The translations under genes were made by a program, and so were the position numbers. Below, one piece after another: positions 10,500 through 58,327 of a DNA stretch of 64,000 nt. The notes under the pieces are model-generated. The model was not told the DNA's origin. It did not search any database and was given only the letters and a program-made list of their open reading frames with translations. The DNA is from Desulfobacterales bacterium. GTDB lineage: Bacteria > Desulfobacterota > Desulfobacteria > Desulfobacterales > SURF-7. The stretch spans positions 68,076-132,075 of the forward strand of contig JAWOIJ010000068.1 of assembly GCA_046484745.1 (NCBI GenBank), written 5' to 3'. Every line of letters starts with the position of its first letter. Positions within the stretch are counted from its first letter, which is position 1.

Positions 10500-10530
10500 G
10501 ATCATATATGACCACAAGGCATATTTAGCC
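10500..10530 (+). promoter_or_regulatory. tandem palindromic boxes (putative enhancer/UAS), module copy E
   Basis: GATCATATATGACC (10500-10513), then ACAA, then GGCATATTTAGCC (10518-10530). This is the inverted-orientation equivalent of the boxes at 52178, 55826, 60679 and 63921. Confidence 0.55.
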
Positions 10531-10631: not shown

Positions 10632-10647
10632 TGGCATAAAGAATGCT
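10632..10647 (+). promoter_or_regulatory. sigma54 -24/-12 promoter (TGGCATAAAGAATGCT), module copy E
   Basis: Canonical GG-N10-GC spacing. It lies 125 nt upstream of the 10772 ATG and about 105-130 bp downstream of the palindromic boxes, with the conserved AT-rich block in between. Confidence 0.55.
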
Positions 10648-10771: not shown

Positions 10772-11125
10772 ATGGGAATAAACGATTGGGAAGGTGATAA
10801 AACCGGAGAAACAGCGACAGACTTCCAAGGTTCGGGTAAGTCGATCGGCTTCGGGAATGTTATAACGATTATTGCTGATAAGATACATAAAATTGCTGAA
10901 ACGCTTGACGAAAAAGCGGCAGATCAGGACACGCAGTCCGGCATGGCTCAGTATGGAAAACAAGCATCCGGGTGGATGGGCCAATCAGCCGAATACATTC
11001 GGCAATTCGACTATAAACAGGCAGATGCCAGGGTCAGAGAATACTTCAGGCAGAGCCCGGGGCGAAGCCTCTTAATCGCAGGAGGAGTCGGCCTGATTAT
11101 CGGAGCTATGTTACGACGCAGGTAA
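10772..11125 (+). CDS. DUF883 (ElaB/YqjD/YgaM-like) tail-anchored membrane stress protein
   Basis: 117 aa. A helical N-terminal part is followed by the C-terminus PGRSLLIAGGVGLIIGAMLRRR, typical of the ElaB/YqjD family. An RBS GAGGTG lies upstream. Confidence 0.65.
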   Translation: MGINDWEGDKTGETATDFQGSGKSIGFGNVITIIADKIHKIAETLDEKAADQDTQSGMAQYGKQASGWMGQSAEYIRQFDYKQADARVREYFRQSPGRSLLIAGGVGLIIGAMLRRR

Positions 11126-11142
11126 GAAGGGAGTTTTTCTCA

Positions 11143-11499
11143 ATGAACAACAAAGTGGTAAACAAGGACGCTACAATACAACGAGACTCCTTTGCGGAAC
11201 TGTTGGGACAGCTTGCCGGCAACTCGGCCGCTGTGGTTCACGACGAAATTGAGCTTGTGACCCGGAAAATTCGAGAAAAGGTGACGGCTGTCCGCAGCGG
11301 AGTCTTAACGGTCGTGACAGGAGCGCTCATCAGTTTTGCCGCATTCATGTCTCTTTGCACTGCATGTATCATCGGGCTCACTTCTTATATGACACCGGTC
11401 ATGGCAGCGCTTATCACTGGAGCGGCGCTTGCTTTAATCGGTGTCGTTATTGTTTTTATCGGCTACAAGCAATTGAAGAACTCAATCTTTAAAACATAG
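11143..11499 (+). CDS. YqjE-like / Phage_holin_3_6 (DUF1469) family membrane protein
   Basis: 118 aa. The N-terminal amphipathic segment (FAELLGQLAGNSAAVVHDEIELV) is followed by two transmembrane helices. The gene order matches yqjD-yqjE of enterobacteria. Confidence 0.6.
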   Translation: MNNKVVNKDATIQRDSFAELLGQLAGNSAAVVHDEIELVTRKIREKVTAVRSGVLTVVTGALISFAAFMSLCTACIIGLTSYMTPVMAALITGAALALIGVVIVFIGYKQLKNSIFKT

Positions 11500-11534
11500 A
11501 AGACAATGCAAATATTGAAAAAGGAGGACAAGGA

Positions 11535-12011
11535 ATGGCTGATGGAAGAGAGCACCTAACCAAAGAAAAGGAAGCGTATGCCAAGCGCAGTTCCGAAAAT
11601 ATACGCCAGGATATAGCTGAAGAAAAAGAGAACCTTTCCCAGACAGTCGATCAAATCGGTGAGCGGATCAAAGAGAAACTGGATTGGCGCGAATATGTGA
11701 AGGGCTCTCCATACTGGGCGATAGGGACTGCCGCCGGCTTAGGTTATCTTGCCTCAAGGGCGTTCACAACACGCGCTACTCCCATGGAGCGAATCATGGG
11801 TACCATTGCCGAGGAAGTTCGCGACTCACTCGGTGGCCTGATTACCCTAGCCGCTGGGCCCGGCCTAATCAAGGTGACCCTGCTGGGTATTGCCACGAAG
11901 GCTGCCGCCGGCTGGATAAAGAATGCAACCACTGCAGGCGGGACAAGCGGTGGCGCCTGCCCTCGACCCCAGACAGGAAGTGATTCGACCATTGACCCGA
12001 GACGAGAATAG
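11535..12011 (+). CDS. DUF883-related membrane-anchored protein
   Basis: 158 aa. It has a charged coiled N-terminus, then GSPYWAIGTAAGLGYLASRAF, which is the ElaB-like anchor motif, and an extra Gly-rich tail. Confidence 0.5.
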   Translation: MADGREHLTKEKEAYAKRSSENIRQDIAEEKENLSQTVDQIGERIKEKLDWREYVKGSPYWAIGTAAGLGYLASRAFTTRATPMERIMGTIAEEVRDSLGGLITLAAGPGLIKVTLLGIATKAAAGWIKNATTAGGTSGGACPRPQTGSDSTIDPRRE

Positions 12012-12054
12012 ATATGTAAAAAATTACTAAAAATAATTTTTTTAGGAGGATAAC

Positions 12055-12408
12055 ATGGATACCGATAAAAAAAAATACAAGACCCCCAAACAGCAAACGG
12101 AAGGAGAGCCCGGCAGCGCCGGTGCTACAGCTCAAAACACCCTGGAACAAGACGCCGAGGCATACGAGCAAGCGAAGCAGGCGGCAAGTGATGCTTATGC
12201 TAAAACGACCCGGAAGGTAAGCGAAACGTATGAGAAGGCTAAAAGTTATAGTACCGAAAATCCGGGCAAGACGATTCTTGTCGCATTGGGGATAGGAGTT
12301 GGCCTGGGTCTTCTCTTGGGCGCAAGCACTCGTCACTCGCGTACCAGCAGGTTTGCCAAACCCGTGGTCCATGCGCTCTCCGACATTGCTCTGGAGTTTT
12401 TCCGTTAA
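12055..12408 (+). CDS. DUF883 (ElaB/YqjD-like) protein
   Basis: 117 aa. A charged N-terminus is followed by ENPGKTILVALGIGVGLGLLLG. AGGAGG lies upstream. Confidence 0.6.
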   Translation: MDTDKKKYKTPKQQTEGEPGSAGATAQNTLEQDAEAYEQAKQAASDAYAKTTRKVSETYEKAKSYSTENPGKTILVALGIGVGLGLLLGASTRHSRTSRFAKPVVHALSDIALEFFR

Positions 12409-13797: not shown

Positions 13798-13842
13798 GGA
13801 GGCTCAAAAAAGATCATATAACCAGTATATTGGAAAATTTCA

Positions 13843-14283
13843 ATGCCGACACCAAAGAGTGAACTTTATCGAGAAGCAATACGAAGATCGCTGATGAGCC
13901 GTGCCGGAAAAATCCCCGATGCAAGCGTGGTCGCCGAAACCACCCTCAACATATGGCAGCAGATGTCCGCCTTGCTCACACCGATTATCGGCATGCGAGG
14001 TGTAGATACTCTCTTCAACCGCTCGCTGCACCTGACGGGCAAAGCCTTCCCGTGGCTTGCTGTTGCCGAGGATGACGAGGATGACACCGCTCTGCTTGTA
14101 TTTTTCAAGGCTCGCCTCGCGGGCAGCGGAACGAATGACGCCATAGAGGCGAGCTGTGCCCTGTTCGTAACCTTCATCGAACTGCTGTCAGCCCTTATTG
14201 GAGAATCGTTGACCAGGCGACTGTTGCGTCCGGTCTGGAAGTGGAAGTTCCCATCACAAAAAATTGAGCCGGAGACCAAATAG
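13843..14283 (+). CDS. hypothetical protein (146 aa), first gene of the KaiC-like operon
   Basis: An ORF with no family I recognise. It ends 11 nt before the KaiC-like start. Confidence 0.5.
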   Translation: MPTPKSELYREAIRRSLMSRAGKIPDASVVAETTLNIWQQMSALLTPIIGMRGVDTLFNRSLHLTGKAFPWLAVAEDDEDDTALLVFFKARLAGSGTNDAIEASCALFVTFIELLSALIGESLTRRLLRPVWKWKFPSQKIEPETK

Positions 14284-14294
14284 GAGACCAAATC

Positions 14295-15785
14295 ATGAAC
14301 ACCAAAATAACCATAAACCAGCTTCCTACCGGCGTTCCGGGACTCGACCAGATCCTGGGCGGGGGTCTTCCGGAATTTTCCTTCAACCTCATCATGGGGC
14401 TTCCGGGTTCCGGCAAGACGACACTGGCGCACCAAATTATGTTCTCCTTGGCGACTCGGGATCATCCGGCGATATTTTTTACCACGCTCGGAGAACCGTC
14501 GGTGAAAATGTTACGTTATCAGCAGCAGTTCTCGTATTTCCAACTCGACAAAATTAATGAGTCGATCCGCTACATCAATTTGAGCGACGACATCGCAACA
14601 AACAAACTGGAACAGGTGCAGGCGCGCATTGAGCAGGAGGTCAAGACATTCTCTCCGGCGCTGGTCTTCGTCGATTCGGTCAGCTCCGTCATGCGGGAGT
14701 CGCAATACCAACCCGAGAGCCGGACAAACCTGCAACAGTTCATCCAGCAGCTCGGAATACTGCTGAGCGGATGGGAAATCACCACCTTCCTGATCGGGGA
14801 ATATGTGGCTGAGAGCAGCGCTAATCCGGTGTTAACGTTGGCCGACGGCCTGTTGCTGCTGGAACAAAACATCTACCGGAATTCAATGGTACGCAAGATG
14901 CAGGTAATAAAAATGCGCGGCCAGGCATCCCGCCCGGGGATGCACACGTTCCGCATCACAAGCACCGGAATCGAAATCTTTCCGACGGCGACGATTCACG
15001 CCGATGCTGGGGACGAGACGGCGGCTTCCAGGCCGGTGCGCAGCAAAACGCGGCTGTCTATGGGTGTGCCGCGCCTCGACGAAATGATGGGCGGCGGCTT
15101 GCCGTCGGGCTATTCCCTGCTGGTTGCGGGGCCGTCCGGATCGGGCAAGACCGTCCTTGCCACGGCATTCCTGAGCGAAGGGGCACGCCGGGGCGAACCA
15201 GGCGTGATCGTCGCATTTGAACAGACGCCGAGTCGGTCTTGGCCCCGCACGCTCGATGATATGATCAGCAAAAATCAGATCGGCTTAATCAATACCCGAA
15301 CCCTGGATTTGTCAATCGACGAAATCATTTTGCGTCTGCGCAATCTCATTCATCAGATGAAAGCCACCCGGGTGGTGATTGACTCGCTGTCCGGGTTCGA
15401 ACTGGCGGTGGCGCCGACCTTCCGCGAGGATTTTCGCGAGTCCCTGTTTCGCATGATCACCGTATTGTCCGGCCTCGGCGTGACGGTGCTGATGACGTCC
15501 GAAATCGAAGACCGCTATATCGATCTGCGGTTCAGCCCCTATGGGTCGGCATTTCTCACCGACGCGATCATCGTCCAGCGTTACATCGAAATGGATAGCC
15601 GCCTGAAGCGCGTCATGGCGGTCGTCAAGATGCGCGCCAGCGACCATAGCAGCGATATTCGGCAGTTCGAAATCATCAGTGATGGTATCGTCATCGGCGA
15701 CCCTGTGCTCAACTACGAAGGACTTCTCTGCGGGCAGCCGACGCAAAAACTGAAGGCCGATAGTGTCGTTCAAGGAAAACTGTGA
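14295..15785 (+). CDS. KaiC-like double RecA-fold ATPase
   Basis: 496 aa with two tandem domains. Each has a Walker A motif (GLPGSGKTT; GPSGSGKTV) and KaiC/RadA-like blocks (VVIDSLSG, KMRGQ/KMRAS). Confidence 0.85.
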   Translation: MNTKITINQLPTGVPGLDQILGGGLPEFSFNLIMGLPGSGKTTLAHQIMFSLATRDHPAIFFTTLGEPSVKMLRYQQQFSYFQLDKINESIRYINLSDDIATNKLEQVQARIEQEVKTFSPALVFVDSVSSVMRESQYQPESRTNLQQFIQQLGILLSGWEITTFLIGEYVAESSANPVLTLADGLLLLEQNIYRNSMVRKMQVIKMRGQASRPGMHTFRITSTGIEIFPTATIHADAGDETAASRPVRSKTRLSMGVPRLDEMMGGGLPSGYSLLVAGPSGSGKTVLATAFLSEGARRGEPGVIVAFEQTPSRSWPRTLDDMISKNQIGLINTRTLDLSIDEIILRLRNLIHQMKATRVVIDSLSGFELAVAPTFREDFRESLFRMITVLSGLGVTVLMTSEIEDRYIDLRFSPYGSAFLTDAIIVQRYIEMDSRLKRVMAVVKMRASDHSSDIRQFEIISDGIVIGDPVLNYEGLLCGQPTQKLKADSVVQGKL

Positions 15786-17449
15786 TGCGCAAGAAAAACT
15801 TACCTCATCGGAAAGATACGACCGGGCAGACACGTGAGGCAAACAAAAGCGCGGTGTCTCCAGACTCGGCGGCCGTGAATACCCTCGCCGAGCGCGAGAC
15901 CGCGGTTTTTAACCAAGAACAGGCCGTTCTTAATCGTGAAGAGGCTGCCACTCTCCGAGAAGATGGTGCCAGCCAGCGTGAAGAGGCCGCCGACCTGCGC
16001 GAGAAGGTCGCCGAAATTGACGCCAAGGCTAAAAACACGCAAAGGAGCGCGGGCACCGAGGAGCAGCTGCGCGAGGCGAACGAGCACCTCGTCGTCGCGA
16101 CGGTTCGCGCCCAGACGATGACCGATGCAGCCGAGCAGACCGCCGCGCAGATGACCCATATGGCCGAGCACGACTTTCTCACGGGTTTACCGAACCGTAT
16201 GCTGCTGACCGACCGCTTAGAGCAGGCGATCACAATCGCACAGCGTCATGGCAAACAGGTCGCCCTGATATTTCTGGACCTCGACAACTTCAAGCATATC
16301 AACGATTCGCACGGGCATGAGGTCGGCGATCAATTGCTGCAGTCGGCCGCAAAGCGCCTGCAGGCGTGTGTTCGCCACTCCGATACCGTCAGCCGCCAAG
16401 GAGGCGACGAATTCGTGGTGCTGCTGCCCGAAGTCGATAAGGTGCAGGGCGCTGTCCTCATCGCCGAAAAGTTGATGGAGGCCATGGCCGAACCGCATCT
16501 TATCAACGGACACCGGCTCCACGTCAGCCTGAGCATCGGCATCAGCCTCTACCCTGATGACGGCAAGGACGTCGAAGCGGTAGTCGGGAACGCCGACACC
16601 GCAATGTATCACGCCAAGAAGAGCGGGCGCAACAACTACCAGGTGTTCACTCCGAACATGAATGTCCGTGCGGTTGCGCGGCAAGCCATCGAGCAGGGGC
16701 TGCACCAAGCGCTCGATCAGTTCAGGTTTGTTTTGCATTACCAGCCTAAGGTGAATCTCGAAACCGGCACAATTACCGGTGCGGAAGCCCTTCTCCGCTG
16801 GAAGCGATCCGATCATCGTCTCGTTAGCCCGAAACAGTTCATGAGTATCGCCGAAAACTGCGGCCTCATTCTGCAGATCGGAAAGTGGGTGCTGCGCGAA
16901 GCCTGCCGTCAGACACAAGCCTGGTTGCATGCCGGCCTCGAACTCGGTCAGATCGCGGTCAACGTTTCGGCCAAGGAGTTCCTTTGTAAAGATTTTCTTG
17001 CCGACGTCCGTACCATATTGGGTGACACCGGCCTGGAACCGCACTACCTCGAAATCGAGCTGACCGAAAGCGGACTCATACACGACATCCAAAAGACAAC
17101 GACGTCTTTGTATGCGCTCAAGGACCTCGGCGTTCAAATTGCTGTCGATGACTTTGGCACCGGCTATTCCAGTCTGAACAATCTGTGGAGTTTCCCAATC
17201 GACACGCTCAAGATCGACCAGTCGTTTGTCCAGGATATCAACAATGATGCCGGCAAGGCCATCGTCAATACAATCATTGCGATGGGCATGAGCCTCAAAC
17301 AGCGAGTCGTGGCCGAAGGCATTGAAACTCGGAAACAGCTCGCATTCCTGCAAGCCCATCGCTGCGCCGAGGGACAAGGCTATTATTTCGGAAGGCCCGT
17401 GGCTGCCGAGGAATTCGCCACATTGCTGACAGAAACCGACAGGAATTAA
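15785..17449 (+). CDS. GGDEF-EAL protein with N-terminal coiled coil (diguanylate cyclase/phosphodiesterase)
   Basis: The ATG overlaps the KaiC-like stop (TGATG). The GGDEF motif is intact (RQGGDEFVVLL) and EAL-domain blocks are present (EIELTES, DDFGTGYSS, KIDQSF). The N-terminal 110 aa is a repetitive RE-rich coiled coil. Confidence 0.9.
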   Translation: MRKKNLPHRKDTTGQTREANKSAVSPDSAAVNTLAERETAVFNQEQAVLNREEAATLREDGASQREEAADLREKVAEIDAKAKNTQRSAGTEEQLREANEHLVVATVRAQTMTDAAEQTAAQMTHMAEHDFLTGLPNRMLLTDRLEQAITIAQRHGKQVALIFLDLDNFKHINDSHGHEVGDQLLQSAAKRLQACVRHSDTVSRQGGDEFVVLLPEVDKVQGAVLIAEKLMEAMAEPHLINGHRLHVSLSIGISLYPDDGKDVEAVVGNADTAMYHAKKSGRNNYQVFTPNMNVRAVARQAIEQGLHQALDQFRFVLHYQPKVNLETGTITGAEALLRWKRSDHRLVSPKQFMSIAENCGLILQIGKWVLREACRQTQAWLHAGLELGQIAVNVSAKEFLCKDFLADVRTILGDTGLEPHYLEIELTESGLIHDIQKTTTSLYALKDLGVQIAVDDFGTGYSSLNNLWSFPIDTLKIDQSFVQDINNDAGKAIVNTIIAMGMSLKQRVVAEGIETRKQLAFLQAHRCAEGQGYYFGRPVAAEEFATLLTETDRN

Positions 17450-17521: not shown

Positions 17522-17599
17522 ATGATAGCACAAACACTGTTGAAAGAACTGAAAAAAAGTCATGCAAAGGAAAAATCAAACAAGGAGAATAACCGATGA
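17522..17599 (+). CDS. possible 25-aa upstream micro-ORF overlapping the lipase start
   Basis: AGGAGG lies 6 nt upstream of the ATG. The product is MIAQTLLKELKKSHAKEKSNKENNR. Its stop overlaps the lipase ATG (ATGA). Confidence 0.25.
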   Translation: MIAQTLLKELKKSHAKEKSNKENNR

Positions 17600-18567
17600 A
17601 AACCAAATCATGTCTGGCTATCCTTATTCTTTTAACGGTATCTCTCTTGCTGGGTGCATCGATCACTCTGGCAGGACCCTTTGGTGAAATCGTCGTATTC
17701 GGTGACAGCTTGTCGGATAACGGGAATCTCCTGCTGATTGACAACCAGCCTGATCCTGATCCGGAATTATACTGGGAAGGCCGTTTGTCCAACGGACCGG
17801 TTTGGGTCGAATATTTAACCGACCCAGCCCATTTTGACACTACCTTAACCGACCGAGCCCTCGGTGGTGCCCAAACCAATGGATTGATACCGCCGGGGCT
17901 GGTCGAGCAGGTGACGATGCATATCGTGGCGACCGGCCCCCCGCTTTCGCCGAATAACCTGTATGTGATCTGGATCGGAGGAAACGACTTTCTGAACGGG
18001 AATGGGGATTTTCAAGAGGCCGTTGACAATATCAACAACGCCATGACAAACCTAGTCGACAATGGGGCCATGTCTATGCTGATTCTGAATTTGCCCGATC
18101 TGGGTGTCATACCGGACATGCTGGGATCAACCGAAGCACCTCAAGCCACTGCATATTACGTCAACTTCAATGCGGCGCTGGCAAGCATGATCGACATATT
18201 CAGGACCGCTAACCCAGGTATCGAAATCTATGAATTTGACGTCGATGCTCTCTTCCTGGAAGTCCTGAATGATCCAAGCGCCTTCGGCTTTATTAATGTG
18301 ACTCAACCTTCACCCAATTTCAGTGTCCCGAATAATTTTGATGGCGCAGGCTACCTTTTTTGGGATGATATCCACCCGACAACCCATATGCACGCCCTGA
18401 TTGCAGACCGGGTATCTGCCGATTTAAACGCACAACTCCCATCCGATATGCCCGACACCCCTGCGGAAGAGGATGAAAGCTCTTCATGCTTTATACAGGC
18501 AATTGCCTGGGAGTGTCCGTTATCTATCCGGCACGTACAACTCAGATGGATTTTTGGACATCAGTAG
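17596..18567 (+). CDS. secreted SGNH/GDSL-family lipase/esterase
   Basis: It has a signal peptide, block I VVFGDSLSDNGN, the GGND block and the C-terminal FWDDIHPT (DxxH). Confidence 0.85.
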   Translation: MKTKSCLAILILLTVSLLLGASITLAGPFGEIVVFGDSLSDNGNLLLIDNQPDPDPELYWEGRLSNGPVWVEYLTDPAHFDTTLTDRALGGAQTNGLIPPGLVEQVTMHIVATGPPLSPNNLYVIWIGGNDFLNGNGDFQEAVDNINNAMTNLVDNGAMSMLILNLPDLGVIPDMLGSTEAPQATAYYVNFNAALASMIDIFRTANPGIEIYEFDVDALFLEVLNDPSAFGFINVTQPSPNFSVPNNFDGAGYLFWDDIHPTTHMHALIADRVSADLNAQLPSDMPDTPAEEDESSSCFIQAIAWECPLSIRHVQLRWIFGHQ

Positions 18568-18582
18568 GAGACCGAGATAGGG

Positions 18583-18596
18583 GGTCATATATGACC
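18583..18596. promoter_or_regulatory. isolated perfect GGTCATATATGACC palindrome
   Basis: An exact copy of the idealised box of the five-copy module, 100 nt upstream of the ATG at 18696. I see no second box and no -24/-12 element nearby. Confidence 0.4.
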
Positions 18597-57082: not shown

Positions 57083-58327
57083 ATGGATACGCCATTGATT
57101 GAATTTAAAGAGGTCACAAAGAGGTTTGGAACCGAAACCGTCCTCGAAGGTGTAAACCTCAAGATATACGAGAAGCAGGTCACGACCATCATCGGTGTGA
57201 GTGGCGGCGGCAAGAGTGTCCTCCTGAAGCTTATCATCGGGCTGCTTAAACCTGATGAGGGAACCATTCTTTTCCGGGGCAAATCTTTTGCTGAAATGAA
57301 AAAACACGAAATAACCGCCTCTTTTGCCCGGATGAGTTACATGTTTCAAGACAATGCCCTGTTTGATTCCATGACTGTTTATGAAAATATTGCGCTGCCG
57401 CTTCGGGAAACAACGAAACATGGAAAGACTGAAATAAACCGGATGGTAATGGCCGGAATCGAACAGACGGAACTGGTCGACGCGGCCGACAAGTTTCCTT
57501 CCGAACTCTCCGGCGGTATGCAGAAGAGGGTGGCCCTGGCACGGGCACTGGTTATTGACCCTCAGATTGTCCTCTTTGACGAACCCACTTCCGGGCAGGA
57601 CCCTGTCCGGAAAAATGCAATTCTGAGCATGGTTGCCCAGTACCAACGAAAATTCGGCTTTACTGCGGTTCTGGTGAGCCATGAGATTCCGGATGTGTAT
57701 TTTATCTCAAACCGTATTCTCGCCCTCTATCATAAAAAAATCGTTTTTCAGGGCACTCCGGAAGAGCTTGATAGTTTCAATCACCCTTTCAAAGACGAGG
57801 TCATCCTCAGCCTGGAAGGATTGCAGGATGAATTAACGGGCCTGCACTCCAGGCGGATGTTTAATGTCATGTATCATTCCCAGCTGAAACATAAAACCAA
57901 CAGTGAGACATACTCCGTGGCGGTTTTTACCCTAAATACGCAGGATGCTATTTTAGGAGGTCTGGGCTTCGAGGAGGCACAGCGGGTGATCAATGCCATG
58001 GGGGTATATATCGATAAACACTTCGGCGCCATCGGGGGTTTTTCCACACGCCGCAAAATCAATGAATTTGTGTCGGTTCTCCCGTATTCGGATCTGGCTG
58101 AGGCTGAAGAAATCATGAAGGTTTTTGTCAAGGATTTCCAGGAACAGGGAATTCGTGACATTCGCTTCGAGGATCGCAGGCGAAGGGTTTCACGGGAATG
58201 CATTGAGATGTCGATCCACGCCGGTTTTGCCCAGGGTCAACCCATTGCCGAAATAGATACCGTCATCGAATCTGCCAAATCTCAACAAAAAAAAATAGGC
58301 CGGATTCTGTGTTCCAACAAGGAGTAA
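57083..58327 (+). CDS. MlaF-like ABC ATPase fused to a C-terminal degenerate GGDEF domain
   Basis: The N-terminal 245 aa has Walker A GVSGGGKS, the signature LSGGMQKRV and Walker B VLFDEPTS. From residue 249 it reads DELTGLHSRRMF...GGFSTRRKINEFVSVLP...SIHAGFA, a GGDEF fold in which GGDEF is replaced by KINEF. Confidence 0.8.
   Translation: MDTPLIEFKEVTKRFGTETVLEGVNLKIYEKQVTTIIGVSGGGKSVLLKLIIGLLKPDEGTILFRGKSFAEMKKHEITASFARMSYMFQDNALFDSMTVYENIALPLRETTKHGKTEINRMVMAGIEQTELVDAADKFPSELSGGMQKRVALARALVIDPQIVLFDEPTSGQDPVRKNAILSMVAQYQRKFGFTAVLVSHEIPDVYFISNRILALYHKKIVFQGTPEELDSFNHPFKDEVILSLEGLQDELTGLHSRRMFNVMYHSQLKHKTNSETYSVAVFTLNTQDAILGGLGFEEAQRVINAMGVYIDKHFGAIGGFSTRRKINEFVSVLPYSDLAEAEEIMKVFVKDFQEQGIRDIRFEDRRRRVSRECIEMSIHAGFAQGQPIAEIDTVIESAKSQQKKIGRILCSNKE

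Follow-up and report, generated by a model that had tools for sequence, protein, structure and literature searches.

The function of KaiC homologues outside the cyanobacteria is a long-standing question. It is raised by a locus in the genome of a Desulfobacterales bacterium (GenBank assembly GCA_046484745.1), where a KaiC-like ATPase with two RecA-type domains is encoded between a small gene, here termed orfA, and a gene for a GGDEF-EAL enzyme of cyclic diguanylate (c-di-GMP) metabolism. The locus lies in a stretch of 64,000 nucleotides of contig JAWOIJ010000068.1 (positions 68,076 to 132,075 of the forward strand), referred to below as the window and numbered from its first nucleotide. The original prediction, made from the letters of this DNA, had described three tightly packed open reading frames (ORFs) at 13843–17449 with an 11-nt gap and a stop/start overlap, and both the coordinates and the junctions were reproduced. 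The TAG stop codon of orfA is followed by the 11-nt gap, which has GGAG inside, and by the ATG of the KaiC-like gene, and the GTGATG at the start of the output gene overlaps the TGA stop codon of the KaiC-like gene. What, then, do the three products do together? The explanation that we favor, on balance and with some reserve, is that the triad is one copy of a widespread, mobile signaling cassette, in which orfA and a KaiC-like ATPase of a distinct clade act with an output protein that would dock through a shared N-terminal module, the state of the ATPase controlling the dimeric output.

The linkage of the three genes extends well beyond this genome. In about 45 loci, orfA is directly followed by a gene of the same KaiC clade. 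These loci are spread over Beta- and Gammaproteobacteria, Geobacterales/Desulfuromonadales, Myxococcota and metagenomes, and include one Caballeronia plasmid, whose triad is annotated as hypothetical protein, ATPase domain-containing protein, and diguanylate cyclase. A locus scan of GTDB, built on a 12-sequence alignment, yielded 17 loci in Burkholderiales, Rhodocyclaceae, Methylotenera, Steroidobacteraceae, Contendobacter, Oryzomonas (among them the isolate O. japonica Red96), Geobacter, Desulfuromonadales, and Polyangiaceae, and all of those with enough downstream DNA have the same three genes. Likewise, each of the four long metagenome contigs encodes orfA, a KaiC of 492–515 amino acids, and a GGDEF protein with the N-terminal module, in unrelated flanks. 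The junctions are equally close. Among 21 related loci, orfA and kaiC share a 4-nt overlap in 15, while kaiC and the output gene overlap by 4 nt or 1 nt in 12 and are separated by 8–13 nt in 6. This tight packing exceeds chance.

The specificity of the linkage is best seen in an evenly sampled set of 201 Burkholderiales genomes, 19 of which contain orfA. The KaiC matches in this set fall into two classes, one of 18 loci with 48–70% identity and another of 21 loci with 35% identity or less. orfA lies directly upstream in 18/18 loci of the class with at least 48% identity, and in 0/21 loci of the other. Two genomes have orfA and no KaiC of the clade, and in these orfA is located at a contig end. 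Co-occurrence of the three families, which had been proposed as a check together with the notion that a lack of linkage would speak against a functional unit, is thus decisively borne out. Judged from gene order and junctions, the three genes are a strictly conserved, translationally coupled unit. The features of the window copy are collected in Table 1.

Table 1. Features of the orfA–KaiC–output locus, in coordinates of the window.
Feature	Coordinates	Strand	Extent	Basis
orfA, all-helical protein	13843..14283	+	146 aa	ORF list
KaiC-like double RecA-type ATPase	14295..15785	+	496 aa; CI ~1–238, CII ~247–470	PF06745 x2
GGDEF-EAL output enzyme	15782..17449	+	555 aa (GTG 15782) or 554 aa (ATG 15785)	
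Output enzyme, N-terminal tail, basic, probably disordered	15782..15889	+	residues 1–36	AlphaFold2 (AF2)
Output enzyme, RE-rich heptad repeats	15890..16036	+	residues 37–85	heptad listing; AF2 helix 29–85
Output enzyme, conserved signaling helix QLREANEHLVVATVRAQTMTDAAEQ...	16058..16162	+	residues 93–127	29 orthologues; AF2 helix 92–128
GGDEF diguanylate-cyclase domain	16163..16636	+	residues 128–285	PF00990, E value 3e-55
EAL phosphodiesterase domain	16700..17398	+	residues 307–539	PF00563, E value 2e-66
GC-rich, horizontally acquired cassette	13838..17439			GC content; tblastx vs G014

The third gene of the triad is not always the same. When residues 1–127 of the output enzyme alone were used as the query, both GGDEF-EAL proteins and hybrid histidine kinases (HKs) were retrieved. 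In the three gene neighborhoods of such kinases that were inspected, the order is again small protein, KaiC, kinase, and the small proteins match the orfA profile with E values of 1e-32 to 1e-34. Among 16 Burkholderiales loci, the output is an HK or HK-REC protein in seven, a GGDEF-EAL protein in five, and a GGDEF-HK fusion in four. Two kinase-type loci have tandem outputs, HK-REC followed by GGDEF-EAL, with the module on both proteins (L060, 61–3468; L061, 8–3472). Outputs with a GGDEF domain only are found in L025, L027, and P0048, and the existence of such versions suggests that direct control is exerted on the cyclase. One Burkholderiales genome, G152, has two paralogous triads (L064 and L065), with GGDEF-EAL and HK-REC outputs. 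The first ~60 residues of these two differing outputs are identical, pointing to an exchange of the output domain by recent recombination at the coiled coil/helix. These comparisons show the output domain to be exchangeable and the N-terminal module to be the constant part. In the GGDEF-HK fusions of L010 (9915–11627), L062, L067, L069, and L072, an LxEANExL helix is duplicated, once before each domain. The H-box of the L010 fusion reads TQELRSP, with Gln in place of His, and the His is kept in L069 and L072.

Based on this arrangement, we propose that the KaiC-like protein would form an ATP-dependent ring and act together with the orfA product. The nucleotide or conformational state of the ring would pass through a dimeric coiled coil to the two GGDEF domains and determine their register, and a change in this register would tip the balance of c-di-GMP synthesis against hydrolysis by the EAL domain. 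Because the ring, with orfA, would transmit its own state through the coiled coil, the input would be the state of the ATPase, as set, for example, by energy charge, by temperature, or by slow cycling of the enzyme, rather than a ligand-binding sensor or a Ser/Thr phosphorylation oscillator. The earlier assignment of the input to the KaiC-like ATPase, the orfA product, or both fits an output that has no standard sensor domain and a module that is shared across outputs; the mechanism by which the input would act is our proposal.

The orfA product was predicted to belong to no known family, and this holds. It has no match in Pfam, NCBIfam, or PADLOC, a sequence profile search of the PDB returned nothing at E values up to 10, and family members scanned singly against Pfam gave noise only. 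The AF2 model, based on 32 sequences, consists of five helices (predicted local distance difference test score (pLDDT) 88.7; predicted template modeling score 0.81). A Foldseek search of the PDB with this model gave a best E value of 1.4 and none below 1. The most conserved motif of the family is L45-x-P47-x-I49-G50...R60-S-L-H63-L64. A word-index search retrieved 35 relatives, all of them metagenomic hypothetical proteins. Among 1.84 billion cluster representatives, the orfA profile matched 3,881 clusters (50% identity) at E values of 1e-3 or below, 2,063 of them at 1e-10 or below, and nearly all are stand-alone proteins of 130–210 amino acids. Since the Pfam, PDB-profile, and Foldseek searches gave no match, orfA appears to represent a large uncatalogued protein family. 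On the same three blank searches, orfA was rejected as a homologue of KaiA or KaiB.

In the window, the product of the second gene contains PF06745 twice (E value 2e-78; 263 bits against a gathering threshold of 26.6), which agrees with the double ATPase originally described, and it is the only double-domain KaiC of the genome. In the PDB it is most similar to KaiC chains (E values 1e-47 to 3e-59; ~27% identity). It falls below the NCBIfam equivalog cut-offs for KaiC, with 241.4 vs. 408 for NF006799 and 157.4 vs. 546.25 for TIGR02655. Motifs were called from an alignment to PDB KaiC and 21 clade members. The Walker A motifs are GLPGSGKT (G35–T42) in CI and GPSGSGKT (G279–T286) in CII. Like these, the Walker B Asp and the Arg fingers are preserved, and the clade alignment shows them to be conserved. 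One catalytic Glu is present in each domain, E67 in CI, followed by Pro, and E309 in CII, followed by Gln. The second catalytic Glu is gone in both, where clock KaiC has the pairs E77/E78 and E318/E319. The positions of S431 and T432 are occupied by Ala419 and Phe420, two residues that do not vary among 22 clade members or among the kinase-type relatives. Moreover, the CI B-loop is deleted, the protein being ~7 residues short where PDB KaiC has PDPEGQEV. In cyanobacteria, KaiB and SasA bind this CI B-loop of KaiC. Neither KaiB nor KaiA (PF07689, PF07688) had a match in the 95%-complete genome, with a positive Synechococcus control, so that the absence of both, first claimed for the locus, extends to the whole genome. 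By these residues, KaiC proteins of this clade are predicted to be unable to run the canonical S431/T432 cycle or to bind KaiB in the known way.

These residues also bear on the phospho-timer that the original prediction had put forward. In its canonical form it is not supported, given Ala/Phe at S431/T432, the second catalytic Glu lost twice, and the deleted B-loop. A looser version is an hourglass, in which slow autophosphorylation and dephosphorylation of the KaiC-like protein, tuned by the orfA product as an analogue of KaiA/KaiB, would time the c-di-GMP output. The double-domain architecture, the intact Walker A of CII, E309 as the equivalent of the general base, and a dedicated partner protein are all consistent with it. 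So is Ser414, which is invariant in the clade and aligned with T426 of KaiC, as is the presence of Ser, Thr, or Ala at position 418, and an hourglass has been proposed for kaiC-HK pairs (PMC3164672, PMC11847603). Against this, S431/T432 are Ala/Phe in every clade member, E319 is replaced with Gln, and a hydroxyl residue is not conserved at position 418. KaiA, KaiB, and the B-loop are all absent, and orfA has no similarity in fold or sequence to KaiA or KaiB. We consider the hourglass unlikely.

The output enzyme is predicted to make and break c-di-GMP, as its GGDEF and EAL motifs are intact. The GGDEF domain scores 186.8 bits (cut-off 23.8) and the EAL domain 224 bits (cut-off 31.3). The GGDEF motif at residues 207–211 and the I-site RxxD (RHSD) at 198–201 are both invariant in orthologues. 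The EAL domain has the full set of EAL, N, ELTE, DDFGTG, KID, EGIE, and QG blocks, with catalytic columns invariant in 29 orthologues, and the intact GGDEF and EAL blocks noted before are thereby confirmed. The closest NCBIfam models are DibA, the PdeR-type PRK10060, and DosP, with scores of 488 and 421 bits for the catalytic region, and the enzyme is below every NCBIfam equivalog cut-off. No PAS, GAF, REC, or HAMP sensor domain was found in the enzyme with Pfam and NCBIfam, and residues 1–127 had no match to either. The RE-rich repeat that had been named as the sole N-terminal feature was recovered both as 21-nt DNA repeats and as heptads. A gapless repeat finder located three 21-nt repeats at 15935–16002; Tandem Repeats Finder gave nothing on this region, and the 21-nt periodicity is seen by the gapless finder only.

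The N-terminal module consists of a poorly conserved tail, a run of heptads, and an LREANExLVVATVRAQ helix. In the output enzyme the heptad register is a=Ala, d=Leu/Val, e=Arg, and g=Glu. The number of heptads ranges from 0 to ~25 among orthologues, with long insertions in L007, L020, L022, and L023. The lengths vary by whole heptads, and the helix would therefore keep its register with the output. Residues L95, R96, A98, N99, E100, L102, and A105 of the helix are invariant in the 29 orthologues. A helix of the LREANE type precedes every output domain and runs into either the GGDEF domain or the DHp domain of an HK. In the AF2 model of the output enzyme, the two N-terminal helices of Table 1 lead into the GGDEF domain, residues 1–28 are disordered, and pLDDT is below 50 for residues 1–39. 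A short EAN[KEQ]S motif is located in the tail at residues 19–23 (15836–15850) and is present also in L008, L017, and L022. It echoes the EANE of the helix and may be a candidate docking motif.

The construction of this module invites a second alternative, namely an ATP-driven remodeler, in which the ring, with orfA as its adaptor, would grip the basic tail, unzip or thread the heptad helix, and switch the output by force. A basic, disordered tail followed by a helix whose length varies, an ATPase of the kind found in RecA-superfamily hexamers, a heptad number that is free to vary as it would be for a track or handle, and the occurrence of an EANE-type motif both in the tail and before the output are what such a machine might display. 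On the other hand, rings of the KaiC family are not known to translocate polypeptides, and the tail is not conserved between GGDEF-type and kinase-type outputs. A remodeler is, in our estimate, quite improbable.

The mobility of the triad is indicated by its composition and distribution. Its GC content is 56.3% vs. 46.1% for the genome (99.7th percentile of 3.6-kb windows), and G+C at third codon positions is 0.62–0.71. The only close relative with the triad, G014, belongs to another genus of the same family, and tblastx homology between the two covers just 13838–17439, the flanks being unrelated. orfA was found in 2/61 related genomes and is absent from both same-genus species searched. Because homology to G014 stops at the triad and the same-genus relatives lack orfA, we conclude that the cassette was acquired horizontally as a unit. 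It starts 5 nt before the start codon of orfA and 45 nt past a gene for an AI-2E-family transporter. No mobile-element repeats or signatures were found in the flanks. The gene directly downstream (17596–18567), outside the triad, encodes a GDSL-family lipase/acylhydrolase that has a signal-like segment at its N terminus, and it is absent beside the G014 triad. A conflict or defense island, or mere co-transfer of genes that do not form one pathway, would suit the patchy distribution, the atypical GC content, and the plasmid copies, but is highly improbable, as gene order and overlapping junctions are kept across phyla, the outputs are ordinary signaling enzymes, there are no flanking mobile-element repeats, and neither orfA nor the output belongs to a PADLOC defense family. 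The defense reading was rejected on these PADLOC results and on the absence of flanking repeats or mobile-element signatures; the ATPase itself gave partial matches to generic P-loop models only, the best being mad8 with 46.7 bits over ~90 residues.

How the cassette is transcribed is suggested by its surroundings. No promoter-like site was found in the 45-nt gap before orfA. A scan for sigma-70 sites detected none upstream of orfA, and its matches were no more numerous than in shuffled sequence. A sigma-54 site was not found before orfA either, and a promoter of the cassette's own was consequently rejected. The nearest sigma-54-like -24/-12 promoter, TGGCAT-N5-ATGCT, is at 10632–10647, ~3.2 kb upstream of orfA. 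Behind it and a palindrome lie genes for small membrane stress proteins of the DUF883, holin-X, and DUF3618 types (10772–12408). The cassette leaves too little space for a promoter of its own. Its expression probably depends on this upstream sigma-54-type stress operon, for which read-through is plausible. The palindromes GATCATATATGACC / GGTCATATATGACC are found at 10500–10513 and 18583–18596 and flank the region, so that the KaiC cassette lies between two such units.

Two further observations concern other copies of the triad. A Crp/Fnr-type regulator (cNMP_binding + HTH_Crp_2) is encoded beside three of the more distant ones, directly upstream on the same strand in L032 (3109–3831) and L033 (3015–3737) and on the opposite strand in L010 (4714–5490); none is near the window copy. 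In those lineages, this regulator may act as a dedicated transcription factor. In one metagenome contig (L009, 8540–10359), the KaiC gene is in fragments and the output gene is truncated, which could reflect a pseudogene or assembly frameshifts.

Potential receivers of c-di-GMP had also been assigned to the window. The degenerate GGDEF domain on MlaF was found, at ~57824–58285. The PilZ gene was not confirmed with Pfam, whose PilZ model has 18 matches genome-wide and 0 on the contig of the window. Nearby receivers would be of little weight anyway, because the genome has 14 GGDEF matches in addition to the 18 for PilZ.

Several points weigh against the mobile, ATPase-controlled cassette that we favor. 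The pLDDT of the heptad helix in the AF2 monomer is only 45–75. Some orthologue repeats (ADQRQDT) are without a hydrophobic d position, and for this reason parts of the repeat region may not form a coiled coil and may instead be a lone helix or lack order. The invariant S414, at the position of T426 in KaiC, leaves room for non-canonical autophosphorylation. Finally, the evidence for co-transcription with the operon upstream consists of the 45-nt gap and the boundary of the cassette.

A much broader reading can be offered only tentatively, and we hold it to be possible rather than probable. The orfA product and the "AF-type" KaiC may constitute an ancient and widespread input device that needs neither KaiA nor KaiB. 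orfA would then be a regulator of the KaiC ring with a new fold and a function analogous to that of KaiA or KaiB. The attached output, be it a c-di-GMP enzyme, a histidine kinase, or both, would read the ATPase state of the ring, a metabolic, thermal, or slow-timer variable, through a plug-in heptad helix, and this role would be the chief one of bacterial KaiC homologues outside the clock. With respect to the long-standing question, the clade is very large, sharply delimited, and without the canonical phosphorylation clock. It always carries the dedicated partner orfA and would feed second-messenger and two-component outputs through a recognizable adaptor helix. The triad thereby offers a concrete and testable system of three proteins, abundant and sharply defined, with c-di-GMP or kinase activity as the readout. 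Cultured carriers include Oryzomonas japonica Red96 and Caballeronia sp. SBC2. In annotation, this KaiC clade and its output can be recognized by the orfA-family gene that lies upstream.

Pairs of kaiC and signaling genes have been described before. In their Ramlibacter genome paper, De Luca et al. (2011; PMC3164672) reported kaiC beside HK or GGDEF/EAL genes in non-cyanobacteria and showed one Ramlibacter kaiC-HK pair to be co-transcribed. The same paper describes a KaiC group with poorly conserved or non-phosphorylatable phosphosites, "AF" included, and proposes an hourglass, a proposal repeated in a 2025 Ramlibacter review (PMC11847603). Those pairs share with the triad a kaiC gene directly before a signaling gene that has a conserved, family-specific N-terminal region. 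They differ in comprising two genes and a phosphorylation hourglass, and the orfA family, the heptad module, and the swapping of outputs are not described in the available text of these two papers. A full-text search of the literature found no description of the orfA family, the triad, the one-to-one link to KaiC, the heptad adaptor, or output swapping. An obligate third component (orfA) and a defined adaptor, added to known signaling pairs of KaiC homologues, thus appear undescribed.

Among enzymes of c-di-GMP metabolism, the output resembles cyclases and GGDEF-EAL phosphodiesterases regulated by a signaling helix. It has the GGDEF-EAL tandem with its catalytic motifs and a helix that leads directly into the GGDEF domain, as in cyclases controlled by dimer register. 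It differs in having no PAS, GAF, REC, or HAMP domain, and its input module is specific to KaiC-linked proteins.

The closest comparison is with the cyanobacterial clock. The KaiC-like protein shares with KaiC of the Synechococcus elongatus KaiABC system (PDB: 1tf7, 2gbl, 3k0c, and others) the CI and CII domains, the Walker A and B motifs, the Arg fingers, and the first catalytic Glu. It differs in the change of S431/T432 to A/F, of E78 to P, and of E319 to Q, in the loss of the B-loop, and in a short C-terminal tail. At the level of the system, the partner is orfA in a genome without KaiA or KaiB, and the outputs have a coiled coil, not a KaiB-like domain. KaiA, with its C-terminal four-helix-bundle domain, is like orfA small, all-helical, and encoded directly upstream in a kai-type operon, but the Pfam KaiA model, the PDB profile, and Foldseek (E value below 1) are all blank for orfA, and the resemblance is one of position and size only. 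The nearest functional parallel may be the coupling of SasA to KaiC and of CikA to KaiB, where, as we propose by analogy for the triad, a KaiC-family ATPase controls an HK, here a c-di-GMP enzyme, by protein contact. SasA docks through a KaiB-like thioredoxin-fold domain. In the clock this domain sits on the CI B-loop. The KaiC of the triad has no B-loop, and in the outputs a helical heptad module takes the place of the thioredoxin-fold domain.

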